From Candidatus Cloacimonadota bacterium (GTDB lineage Bacteria > Cloacimonadota > Cloacimonadia > Cloacimonadales > TCS61), in the NCBI GenBank assembly GCA_021108315.1, contig JAIORE010000190.1:2736-66735 (forward strand): a stretch of DNA of 64,000 nucleotides, written 5' to 3'. Numbering within the stretch: position 1 is the stretch's first letter; each line of letters opens with the position of its first letter. Below, in pieces: positions 10,154-47,284 of the stretch. The notes under the pieces were generated by a model that was given only the letters and a program-made list of their open reading frames with translations, was not told the origin of the DNA and did not search any database. The translations under genes were made by a program, and so were the position numbers.

Positions 10154-10169
10154 TGGCATAACTTATGCA
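10154..10169 (+). promoter_or_regulatory. Putative sigma54 (-24/-12) promoter
   Basis: TGGCATAACTTATGCA gives GG-N10-GC, ~33 nt before ATG 10201. The core GCATAA-C-TTATGC is also a perfect palindrome. Confidence 0.6.
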
Positions 10170-10200
10170 ATTACATTTTGAAAATTGTATTGGAGGAAAA

Positions 10201-45100: not shown

Positions 45101-47284
45101 GTTCCCGGTGGAACTGAGCAATATTCTTTTATGAATCGTGAAATTCCCGGACCATTGGGACCTTCTCCAATGATAGCTCCCTTTTGGGATGATTTGATAA
45201 TTTCCGGAGGTCATGTTTGTTATCAATATTTCAATGATAATCATACTTTTGTAGTGGAGTGGTCTCATCTAAAAAATGAATACAACGGTAGTTCAGAGGA
45301 AACCTTTCAGGTAATTTTATATGATCCAATGTATTATCCCACTTCAACAGGTGATGGAAGAATTTTATTCCAATACAAAACCATAAACAATGTTGATCAG
45401 GGTGCGTATGGTAGCACTTATGAAGAGCATGGATTATATGCAACGATTGGATTGGAAGATCATACCGGATTCAGAGGTTTACAATATACTTTTAATGATA
45501 CATATCCTACGGCTGCCAAAGAATTAGAAAATGAGATGGCAATTATGTTTACTGGGGCTCCTATTCCCCACGAAGATGCTTTTTTAGTATTAGGAAGCTT
45601 GGATATTCAGGATGAGAACAATAATAATCAGATGGATATTGGAGAAGATATAGAATTGGGTATTTTTTTGAATAATGTGGGAGAAGGTAATGCTTATAAC
45701 GTAAATGCAACTATCTCTACTTCAGATCAATACATTGATATTACCCAGAATTATGCAACTTATGGAACAGTATTTGGAGAAAACTCGCAGGTGAATAGTG
45801 ATCCATTTTTGCTAAGCATTTCTGAAAATGTTCCCAATGGACATATTGCTACTATCAATGTAAATGTACAAAGTGATAATGATGTCTGGCCATTAGTACT
45901 AAATGTAGAATTATATGCTCCTCAATTGGAATATAATACCACTTTCTTTGATGATGAAGATAATTATTCCATAGATCCGGACGATTCAGGAAATTTATTT
46001 GTTTCCATTCATAATTCCGGAGGAACTCCAATTGAAAATATCACAGGAACACTGTCTACAACAGATAATGATGTCTCTATTAGTCAAGCCAGTGATGCTA
46101 TATTGATGTTCGAAGGAAATTCATACGATTCATTTAGTTATTCTGTTCATTTTTTATCTTCTATTGATATTGGGCAAGTGGTAGATTTTGAACTTTCCAT
46201 AACTAATGAAAATGGTTTTGATGTAACGATTCCTTTCTCTGTAAGAGTGGGTGTATCTATGGAAGATTTTGAAACGGGTGATTTTGATTCTTTCTCATGG
46301 GAATTTAGTGGATCTGCCGATTGGACAATTTCAAATGGGGCTTTTGAAGGCAATTATTGTGCTAAATCTGGTACGATAACCCATAACCAAGATAGTATCA
46401 TGGAAGTATCTTTTGATGTTCCTGCTCAATCGGAAATAAGTTTTATGAGAAAGGTATCTTCAGAAAATAATTATGATTATTTATACTTTGAGATAGATGG
46501 ACAAACAATTGGCGACTGGTCTGGAACGTATCCTTGGGCTTTGCAAACATATACGATCTCGGCAGGTACGCATACTTTTGAATGGAGATATCACAAAGAT
46601 GGTTCAGTAGATACAGGTAGTGATTGTGCATGGATAGATAATATCACTTTCCCCGGAGCAGGAAACTATGATGATCCAGAATTAGAATTTAGCATATCAT
46701 CTTTTGAAATAGAGATGGAAATGGAAGCAACCAATGTAGAATCTTTCACTATAACAAATACCGGAGGTTTGGTGGGATACTACTCTCTGGATCTGCAAGG
46801 AACTTACGATTGGATTACCGTATATCCTATCGAAGGAAGTGTTCTCTTCAATGAAACGGATGAAATCTATCTGGAATTTTCTACTATTGATTCACAATCC
46901 GGAGATTATGAATGTGAACTTCTCATTACTAATGATGGAGACGAAACTATTATTCCTATTACACTTACTGTTACAAATACCAACTCAGATATTATTGAAC
47001 TTCCGGAAATTACAGAGCTTAAAGGGAATTATCCAAATCCTTTCAATCCTACAACTACAATTGCTTTTGATCTGAATATAAATACTCAAGTAAAATTGGA
47101 TATTTATAATATCAAAGGTCAGAAAGTCATAACACTTTTGAATAATTCATTTGAAGCTGGAAATCATAAAGTTGTTTGGAATGGAAAAAATGAAAACAAA
47201 AAAAATGTAGCTTCTGGTGTCTATTTTTATAATTTTTCTGCCAACAACTATCAGAAAACCAAAAAAATGTTAATGATGAAATAA
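42164..47284 (+). CDS. Peptidase C25 (gingipain) family protein with propeptide, Ig-like repeats and T9SS/FlgD-type C-terminal sorting domain
   Basis: Propeptide (GFPELPRFTRMI), LCIVGD, LGRLS, LTCATGD and NLMGEP motifs; CTD GNYPNPFNPTTTIAF...IYNIKGQKV...SGVYFY...KKMLMMK. Confidence 0.92.
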   Translation: MKKIIIFIIFGIFILSLNAEWQAIDQNKKSDLFNITSNSQNNIEIEFSLDGFDNGTIIKKSENYCKITYPEEGRFIQTGFPELPRFTRMITIPESAEIEINIEQNEFELFHNIKPFPAQPLVYESDPPRTDFIINDNFYKNGSTFPLELVNIGESAYLRDLRVVNITINPFQYDPKTETLKVFTNMNVSVNIVGGRSSEKRKKSRFFEPLYESVVINYDSSNNRDEDYQIPSYLFIYPDNTQLLNILRVLTNWKHQKGFEVHLASTSDTGTSSNQIKNYIQNAYDNWENPPEFLCIVGDAVGTLSIPTSDCDGGDGDQFYSLLAGDDILADIFLGRLSIDTTTDLQTIINKIIHYEKEPYLGSTDWYTNALLVGDPTHSGSSTIITSKYLKELISSSNPDFTFDEAYSGSYVNTMINSLNDGVSYFSYRGYIGMSGWDNSDTIALNNGFMLPVVMILTCATGDISSTYEDAESEIFLRVGTPSTPKGAIACVGTATAQTHTCYNNIVTGATFHGIFKDDITNMGGALTRGKLALYNNYPDNDDNAVNKFSYWNNLMGEPAIELWTGVPQNMFAEFSDQIPLGTNFIEITVTDVYTNVVQGAWITILKGNDEIFVSAYSDEDGKVILPIQTENTGDFSITITKHNYIPIIETTTIFQDDVFVNIIESAIDDDTSGESSGNFNGLVNPGETIELSLKLKNSGNNATGDITTTISCENEHISILSSEQYYGSIAPGEELYSNSDFVFTVNMQALNEEEVDFIITISDDTREIWQDHLFINIKAAELVYNHYNVEDGNNQLPDPGETMELIVTIDNIGYEDITSVYGTLSCENDLIEINDNSGYFGNIAYDTTENNNSDRFNIAINALTIPGNQILMNLELYNSNGFSNTTQFMLEIGEVSITDPYGPDDYGYYAYDDEDTDYLDVPIYNWIEIDPAYGGSGTVLSMSDVGNNGDIEDVDLPFVFPYYGQYYNMITICSNGFIVPGGTEQYSFMNREIPGPLGPSPMIAPFWDDLIISGGHVCYQYFNDNHTFVVEWSHLKNEYNGSSEETFQVILYDPMYYPTSTGDGRILFQYKTINNVDQGAYGSTYEEHGLYATIGLEDHTGFRGLQYTFNDTYPTAAKELENEMAIMFTGAPIPHEDAFLVLGSLDIQDENNNNQMDIGEDIELGIFLNNVGEGNAYNVNATISTSDQYIDITQNYATYGTVFGENSQVNSDPFLLSISENVPNGHIATINVNVQSDNDVWPLVLNVELYAPQLEYNTTFFDDEDNYSIDPDDSGNLFVSIHNSGGTPIENITGTLSTTDNDVSISQASDAILMFEGNSYDSFSYSVHFLSSIDIGQVVDFELSITNENGFDVTIPFSVRVGVSMEDFETGDFDSFSWEFSGSADWTISNGAFEGNYCAKSGTITHNQDSIMEVSFDVPAQSEISFMRKVSSENNYDYLYFEIDGQTIGDWSGTYPWALQTYTISAGTHTFEWRYHKDGSVDTGSDCAWIDNITFPGAGNYDDPELEFSISSFEIEMEMEATNVESFTITNTGGLVGYYSLDLQGTYDWITVYPIEGSVLFNETDEIYLEFSTIDSQSGDYECELLITNDGDETIIPITLTVTNTNSDIIELPEITELKGNYPNPFNPTTTIAFDLNINTQVKLDIYNIKGQKVITLLNNSFEAGNHKVVWNGKNENKKNVASGVYFYNFSANNYQKTKKMLMMK

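Follow-up and report, generated by a model that had tools for sequence, protein, structure and literature searches.

A probable mosaic of separately regulated secreted-protein genes in a Cloacimonadota genome, with a conserved enhancer-binding protein–giant exoprotein unit and a strand-truncated terminal fibronectin type III domain as a candidate sorting tag

Does a run of same-strand genes for large secreted proteins form one system, or do the genes simply lie side by side? The question is raised by a stretch of ~37 kb in the genome of a Candidatus Cloacimonadota bacterium, which encodes a secreted S8 protease, a 1111-aa predicted outer-membrane β-barrel, a bacterial enhancer-binding protein with tetratricopeptide repeats (TPR-bEBP), two paralogous giant proteins (giants 1 and 2) and a protein of the gingipain family C25. 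The stretch lies within a 64-kb window, the whole stretch of DNA analyzed here, which corresponds to positions 2736–66735 of contig C2 in an assembly of 4.71 Mb (456 contigs, 31.5% G+C, 95% complete). Anaerobic digesters and anoxic sediments harbor Cloacimonadota in abundance, yet these bacteria are barely cultured, and much of their genome is given to giant exoproteins. The initial annotation placed all of these genes on the + strand, which was confirmed for each of them, and read them as one sigma-54-controlled surface or attack system with its own sorting signal and a dedicated barrel. The observation proved largely right and the systems-level interpretation mostly wrong. The stretch is probably a mosaic, or chance neighborhood, of separately regulated secreted-protein genes, and this likelihood applies to the reading as a whole, including its accounts of three elements that are worth keeping: a unit of bEBP, enhancer sites, sigma-54 promoter and giant protein; a strand-truncated terminal fibronectin type III (FN3) domain as a candidate tag; and a lineage-specific giant barrel.

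The cluster is not conserved in relatives, where the initial annotation had proposed to look for synteny. The neighbors of the barrel gene differ at every locus examined. In the closest relative, a member of the same family (G008), the barrel gene, the bEBP ortholog and the S8 homologs are located on separate contigs, and in a closed genome (G020) the barrel and bEBP genes are 0.9 Mb apart. The pair formed by the bEBP and the giant is the sole part of the 37-kb stretch with a conserved gene order in relatives.

The sigma factor required for the proposed regulation is encoded in the genome: rpoN is present as a 500-aa open frame on contig C36 (PF04552, E 8.3e-49), accompanied by about 36 bEBP genes. 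The bare GG-N10-GC motif, by which the initial annotation had recognized boxes before three genes, is uninformative on its own because it occurs 135 times in the window. As a reference, the extended consensus TGGCAC-N5-TTGCW was used, with exact −24 GG/−12 GC spacing. The boxes at 10154 (TGGCATAACTTATGCA) and 22094 (TGGCATCAAAAATGCA) match TGGCAY-N5-WTGCW, a pattern with 30 sites in the 4.7-Mb genome, where by our own calculation base composition alone would predict ~9. Twenty-six of the 30 sites lie outside long open reading frames (ORFs), and several stand before genes for C-terminally tagged exoproteins. With a position weight matrix (PWM) built from these genomic sites, the same two boxes gave the best scores in the window (23.2 for 22094 and 22.6 for 10154), and the S8 ATG at 10201 is preceded by GGAGG. 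Both boxes are predicted with high confidence to be sigma-54 promoters. The third box, at 42112 (TGGAATAATATATGCT), scores 13.6 and matches only the GG/GC core plus TGC, and the mismatch with the consensus at the C in TGGCA counts against it. Since it is intergenic, correctly oriented and close to an ATG, and since 49% of its score class is intergenic compared with 14% for the genome background, the box is probably real, and we regard it as a plausible, weaker predicted promoter. Upstream of the barrel, bEBP and giant 2 genes, motif and PWM scans recognized no sigma-54 box.

The TPR-bEBP comprises an N-terminal TPR array, an AAA+ sigma-54 activator domain and a Fis-type helix-turn-helix (HTH) and has no receiver domain. 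Its Walker A motif, GESGTGKE, is readable, and the GAFTGA loop appears in the variant form NAFTGA. Three copies of the palindrome GGWC-N6-GWCC, which has 40 sites genome-wide, are located directly 3′ of the bEBP gene and upstream of the 22094 promoter. On contig C111, a paralogous giant (57% identical to giant 1) adjoins a TPR-bEBP that is 51% identical to that of the window, and three copies of the palindrome again stand upstream of its sigma-54 box. The corresponding modules of G008 and G020 contain three and two copies, respectively, and across the modules the sites fall at about −90/−100, −180/−190 and −260/−350. The recurring order on C111 and in G008 is thus bEBP, two to three GGWC-N6-GWCC sites, sigma-54 box, small ORF and a large FN3-ended protein; G020 has the bEBP, sites, box and giant in this order, minus a clear small ORF. 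In a further relative (G025), the bEBP, the small ORF and a giant 45% identical to giant 1 are adjacent, but neither GGWC-N6-GWCC sites nor a box scoring ≥15 were detected in this module, which counts against the reading given here. Within the stretch, no GGWC-N6-GWCC sites are present upstream of S8, giant 2 or C25.

The small ORF of the window (22210–22449) is a shortened copy of a receiver-like family of 110–150 aa that leads these operons. Within the segment 22210–22486, the C-terminus of the family, KKGGHYV, is still readable after two stops, where it overlaps the ribosome-binding site and ATG of giant 1. Because this remnant persists past two stops and the copies on C111 and in G008 are intact, the leader gene appears to be decaying in the window. 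Giant 1 itself is probably a Sec-exported LamG/β-helix surface protein, an adhesin-like fiber. These features suggest a mechanism in which the TPR-bEBP would bind the three palindromes and, once bound, activate the sigma-54 promoter at 22094, from which the decayed pseudo-receiver leader and then giant 1 would be transcribed.

The other secreted-protein genes appear to be controlled differently. The S8 protease, which carries Ig-like, MAM and choice-of-anchor domains and whose signal peptide is visible from ATG 10201, is preceded by another palindrome, TTCGCA-N7-TGCGAA. Only two copies of this palindrome exist in the genome, and the other, on contig C54, precedes a sigma-54 box by 91 bp. Since the S8 palindrome differs from GGWC-N6-GWCC, S8 and giant 1 are assigned to different regulons; S8 would be transcribed from a sigma-54 promoter of its own under a different activator, one that recognizes TTCGCA-N7-TGCGAA. 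The operon behind the C54 copy (C54:14690–23575) encodes a putative lipoprotein, as read from its N-terminus, a protein with a type-A C-terminal domain (CTD) of T9SS, the type IX secretion system, and a 1380-aa FN3-ended protein. A TPR histidine kinase gene adjoins the S8 promoter on its 5′ side, and the N-terminal TPR array of the kinase resembles that of the bEBP.

Giants 1 and 2 are 58% identical over ~3,084 aa. A counterpart of the giant-1 upstream region was sought before giant 2 and none was found. Giant 2 appears to be a tandem paralog preceded by a terminator-like hairpin and a dispersed repeat, without a recognizable sigma-54 box. This repeat, of ~270 bp, occupies the spacer between the giants (31684–31955), and another, of ~150 bp, follows the bEBP gene (21655–21810); both resemble miniature inverted-repeat transposable elements and have at least 20 copies with 77–92% identity on other contigs.

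The C25 protein ends in a T9SS CTD, as had been annotated: Por_Secre_tail/TIGR04183 (PF18962) matches at residues 1630–1710 (about 47030–47281), and among the proteins tested it is the only one with such a type-A match. It aligns to RgpB with E 3.7e-21. The nucleophilic Cys of the catalytic dyad is kept (LTCATGD), while the RgpB His (YTGHGS) aligns to a Tyr (YRGYIG), so that the protein is probably a pseudo-protease or acts by an altered mechanism. The protein is not the sortase PorU: it does not match the PorU model NF033707, the PorU-like gene of the genome is located on contig C24, and the catalytic His is replaced. The C25 protein would be an ordinary type-A T9SS cargo with a weaker sigma-54-like box. 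Shared regulation of the stretch likewise finds no support, as the promoters have different or no common enhancer motifs in a genome with so many bEBPs.

S8, giant 1 and giant 2 do end in a common domain of ~75 aa, as the initial annotation stated. It occupies the last ~82 aa of S8 (about 13852–14097); in giant 1 (about 31253–31483) it is followed by a 23-aa basic tail, and in giant 2 (about 41518–41886) it contains an insertion of ~45 aa. In an iterated profile search, 78 ORFs of the genome were found to end in this domain, so it is not specific to the stretch. The three C-termini gave no match at E ≤ 10 to the T9SS models of type A (TIGR04183, PF18962) or type B (TIGR04131, PF13585). A divergent type-A CTD was rejected because hhalign returned a probability of 6% against the 245 type-A CTDs of the genome, and the label "non-T9SS" in the sense of neither CTD type therefore stands. 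No Pfam or NCBIfam model matched at E ≤ 10, PF00041 included. The AlphaFold2 (AF2) model (pLDDT 90) contains six strands and in Foldseek matches FN3 domains best (CtXyl5A, 3MPC and tenascin-type), with TMq of 0.62–0.72 and weak E-values (≥7e-3); no T9SS CTD is found among the top 50 matches. The domain profile matches 51,671 representative proteins (E ≤ 1e-3), mostly tandem FN3 arrays. The predicted fold and the sequence family are accordingly not new, and the domain described at first as novel is a member of a very large FN3 repeat family.

The terminal copies differ from their relatives in where the chain stops. The FN3 sandwich has seven strands, A-B-C-C′-E-F-G, and the terminal copies are without strand G. 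Tandem FN3 repeats of the same family have a median of 13 residues, corresponding to strand G, after the profile end, and just 2 of 149 proteins terminate at that point. When a genome collection was scanned with a closer sub-alignment of the domain, it was C-terminal in all 66 evaluable loci, which came from Cloacimonadota, Delongbacteria and UBP11 genomes. The chain ends ≤5 residues after strand F in 53 of these and continues only as a basic tail of 6–50 aa in the other 13. The terminal consensus reads ...SYKVYSSxDP...KKFYYVKAVN-stop, sometimes with a Lys/Arg tail. Across 201 phylum genomes, the strict pattern FYYV[KT]A[VI][NK] has 35 matches; a true stop, never TGG, comes after every one of them, and a control pattern gave 0 matches. 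As a proxy for the whole family, this strict census was discarded as too narrow; the profile detects giant-type termini in G020 and G025 that the census overlooks. By a crude heuristic, 63 of the 74 bearers with a complete N-terminus (85%) have a signal-peptide-like start, compared with 84% of type-A cargo and 36% of random ORFs. Among the closest homologs of S8, the C-terminus is a type-A CTD in some and this terminal FN3 in others. Several proteins of ~150 aa (C144:8814–9284, C1:17844–18320 and one on C162) contain nothing but a signal peptide, a brief linker and the terminal FN3, and each comes after a conserved exported protein of 470–610 aa. Stop read-through joining the upstream genes to these small ORFs was considered for C144 and C1 and rejected, since they are separate genes with their own ribosome-binding site, ATG and signal peptide.

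This behavior, read from the sequences, fits that of a positional tag, and the strand-truncated terminal FN3 may be a lineage-specific, undescribed sorting or anchoring tag. S8 and the giants end in a domain of predicted FN3 fold that halts after strand F, so that the G strand is missing, or that continues only as a short Lys/Arg tail, and this end may serve as a sorting or surface-retention tag read by the T9SS. Alternatively, a strand of a partner protein may complete the open edge of the β-sheet. Tentatively, and short of calling it probable, we propose that in Cloacimonadota and Delongbacteria the terminal FN3 makes up a third class of signals for C-terminal sorting or anchoring, functionally equivalent but unrelated to the T9SS CTDs, which would act either as a "type C" signal of the T9SS or by strand completion with an outer-membrane partner (for instance a PorV-like protein or the giant barrel). 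T9SS components, whose presence the initial annotation had left to be confirmed, were found in part. A SprA homolog is encoded by a 2051-aa frame on contig C21 with a SprA_N match, the PorU-like gene on C24 is the best genomic match to NF033707 (410 bits versus a cut-off of 420), three PorV-like proteins are encoded away from the window, and about 240 proteins carry type-A CTDs. An operon on the − strand of contig C72 (5217–11680) contains genes for a PtsN-like EIIA, a PorV-like outer-membrane protein and two exoproteins that end in the terminal FN3 and appear nuclease-like from sequence reading alone. The PorV paralog of this operon is a candidate partner of the terminal FN3 domain.

Several observations weigh against the tag reading. 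Searches for GldM and GldK yielded either nothing or matches that fell short of the cut-offs, with controls that were silent or non-specific, and the five secretin genes of the genome point to export routes besides the T9SS. The distribution of the strict "KAVN-stop" subfamily is uneven, with bearers in 14 of the 201 phylum genomes. Because the domain belongs to a huge and generic FN3 family (51,671 proteins), the terminal copies could also be structural ends without an addressing role. In bacterial exoenzymes, FN3 modules often act as spacers. An alternative that we consider somewhat unlikely is accordingly that the terminal FN3 plays no part in sorting and is only the last structural or ligand-binding module, its position having arisen by domain shuffling of an ancestral cassette. 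The match of the profile to tens of thousands of ordinary FN3 repeats is in line with this explanation, as are the best structural matches, which are FN3 modules of clostridial cellulosomal enzymes, and the presence of G-strand-containing FN3 copies at internal positions of type-A CTD proteins in the same genome. It accounts less well for the precise stop of the chain behind strand F in dozens of proteins that are unrelated to one another and come from several candidate phyla, for the recurrence of basic tails behind the domain, for S8 homologs in which it and the type-A CTD take turns at one position, and for the ~150-aa proteins that are little beyond a signal peptide and the terminal FN3.

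The 1111-aa barrel presents a different pattern of occurrence. Its gene is single-copy and present in 30 of 31 relatives, and the family has 247 matches among 5.8 billion proteins, with all named ones from Cloacimonadota; more distant homologs occur in Delongbacteria and UBP11 (5 of 5 genomes). None of the 30 family members (~1,090 aa each) has a Pfam or NCBIfam match. The AF2 model, based on 30 homologs, has a pLDDT of 83.5 and contains ~40 long antiparallel strands, and the protein terminates in Phe (...KAEF). The initial annotation called the barrel SprA-like. In a comparison that took the 36-strand SprA barrel as the reference, Foldseek does place SprA chains at the top by E-value (1.8e-10), with TM-scores of 0.25/0.15, but MtrB, BtuB and SusC score nearly as well. 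The barrel profile aligned to the SprA homolog with an hhalign probability of 45%, and when run against the genome with filters off, its sole significant non-self match was a motif of ~50 aa in that homolog (E 7e-4). A profile search of PDB sequences with the barrel family returned nothing. Identity with SprA was rejected: SprA_N (PF14349) matches the C21 frame instead, and by BLASTP and profiles only the ~50-aa motif is common to the two. LptD was also considered and rejected, as an LptD_2 protein is encoded on contig C252 and PF04453 gave no match to the barrel, although PF04453 also misses a Bacteroides control. A giant outer-membrane barrel remains predicted, and its remote likeness to SprA is weakly supported, but by SprA_N match and length it falls outside the SprA/Sov family. 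Nor is it dedicated to the stretch, being single-copy in nearly all relatives among unrelated neighbors. The barrel is probably a lineage-specific housekeeping outer-membrane protein, at most remotely related to SprA, which would simply happen to lie in the stretch.

It is very unlikely that the barrel serves as the outer-membrane receptor or translocon for the FN3-ended proteins wherever its gene lies. The restriction of the named family members to Cloacimonadota, the occurrence of the barrel in the same Delongbacteria and UBP11 lineages that yielded terminal FN3 loci, and its remote SprA resemblance would be compatible with such a role. This co-distribution is coarse, however, and common to any lineage-specific gene; the strict terminal-domain subfamily is patchy while the barrel is nearly universal, and no conserved linkage between the barrel and terminal-domain genes was seen.

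Hardly credible is the reading of the whole 37 kb as one sigma-54-co-regulated surface or attack system, whose cargo would use the new C-terminal domain, with the adjacent SprA-like barrel as its dedicated translocon: although all genes share a strand, promoter-like boxes precede S8, giant 1 and C25, SprA is among the top Foldseek matches of the barrel, and the 50-aa barrel-family motif finds only the SprA homolog, the reading fails and is largely refuted by the absence of synteny, the point on which the initial annotation had itself staked it, since the barrel, bEBP and S8 homologs are unlinked in relatives, and it is further opposed by the IS200 and HU-HIG genes that break up the "cluster", by enhancer motifs that are not the same between promoters, by the dispersal of the terminal domain over 78 proteins across the genome, and by a barrel present in 30 of 31 relatives as against a strict terminal-domain subfamily in 14 of 201 genomes. 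Here, genes that adjoin on one strand of a fragmented metagenome-assembled genome did not amount to a functional cluster.

The features of the stretch and its immediate surroundings are listed in the table. Beyond the genes first listed, the HU-HIG gene, an IS200 Y1 transposase and the TPR histidine kinase are also present, and the lone IS200-type transposase sits between the HU-HIG gene and the barrel gene.

Table. Features of the stretch and its flank, in window coordinates.
Feature	Position	Strand	Evidence or remarks
TPR histidine kinase, directly 5′ of S8	8057..9829	+	Pfam TPR_12 E 3.7e-44, HATPase_c E 8e-21
Candidate enhancer palindrome TTCGCA-N7-TGCGAA	10062..10080	unstranded	92 bp upstream of S8 sigma-54 box
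Predicted S8 sigma-54 promoter TGGCATAACTTATGCA	10154..10169	+	PWM 22.6, intergenic, 32 nt before ATG 10201
Secreted S8 subtilase	10201..14100 (open frame from 10165)	+	PF00082 E 1.3e-30
HU-HIG DNA-binding protein, unrelated insert	14462..14851	+	PF18291 E 6.2e-27
IS200-type Y1 transposase	15219..15674	+	PF01797 E 1.9e-23
Predicted 1111-aa outer-membrane giant β-barrel	15805..19140	+	AF2 model; without Pfam or NCBIfam match
TPR-bEBP	19254..21632	+	PF00158 E 1.5e-62, TPR, HTH_8 (PF02954)
Three GGWC-N6-GWCC palindromes, candidate enhancer	21834..22007 (starts 21834, 21903, 21994)	unstranded	−260, −191, −100 of promoter
Predicted giant-1 operon sigma-54 promoter TGGCATCAAAAATGCA	22094..22109	+	PWM 23.2, window maximum
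79-aa leader ORF, truncated pseudo-receiver copy	22210..22449	+	Alignment to 110–150-aa copies on C1, C111, G008
Giant 1, 3033 aa	22454..31555 (likely start ATG 22484)	+	LamG, PMP/β-helix repeats, Ig-like domains
Terminator-like hairpin, 15-bp stem, after giant 1	31606..31638	+	
Giant 2, 3196 aa, giant-1 paralog	32299..41889	+	LamG, PMP/β-helix, Ig-like modules
Weaker sigma-54-like box TGGAATAATATATGCT	42112..42127	+	PWM 13.6, 37 nt before C25 ATG
Gingipain-family C25 protein	42164..47284 (open frame from 42143)	+	PF01364 E 5.9e-48

If the terminal FN3 is indeed a tag, about a quarter of the recognizable C-terminally tagged exported proteins of this genome (78 versus ~240 with type-A CTDs) would use a signal that annotation misses, and secretome predictions for the phylum would be incomplete. 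The module of TPR-bEBP, enhancer and sigma-54 promoter offers a concrete candidate DNA-binding site for an uncharacterized class of activators. The barrel family, present in almost all relatives, is an uncharacterized outer-membrane component that merits separate study.

Comparison with known systems places these elements more precisely. Like SprA/Sov (PDB 6H3I, 8GL6), the 1111-aa protein is predicted to be a very large outer-membrane β-barrel; SprA is among its best Foldseek matches, and the ~50-aa motif is common to both. In contrast, it has half the length of SprA (~2,000–2,400 aa), no SprA_N match and TM-scores of only 0.25/0.15, and a separate SprA homolog, the 2051-aa reading frame, is encoded elsewhere in the genome. 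The C25 protein shares with the gingipains RgpB and Kgp (MEROPS C25) a propeptide, a catalytic domain, an Ig-like domain and a type-A CTD, and differs from them in the Tyr at the position of the catalytic His, in ~1,000 extra residues and in giving no match to the PorU model. In chaperone-usher and type V pilins, an Ig-like fold without its last strand is completed by donor-strand exchange. The terminal FN3 is likewise an Ig-like sandwich without its final strand, with strand F as the open edge, a resemblance of principle; its domain is of the FN3 type, however, and neither a chaperone nor an usher nor a donor strand came to light here. With the T9SS CTDs of type A (TIGR04183/PF18962) and type B (TIGR04131/PF13585), it shares the character of a small C-terminal β-sandwich on Sec-exported, often very large proteins of an FCB-group bacterium, and it takes the position of the type-A CTD in homologous S8 proteases. 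It differs from them in lacking any sequence relation (hhalign 6%; no match at E ≤ 10) and in its FN3 topology minus the last strand. Finally, the bEBP of the window has the AAA+ sigma-54 interaction domain, Fis-type HTH and (N)AFTGA loop of the NtrC family, and, as in NtrC-family systems, several palindromes lie 100–260 bp upstream of a GG-N10-GC promoter. In contrast to that family, the protein would sense its signal through a TPR array in place of a receiver domain, and a stand-alone pseudo-receiver is instead encoded as the first gene of the target operon.

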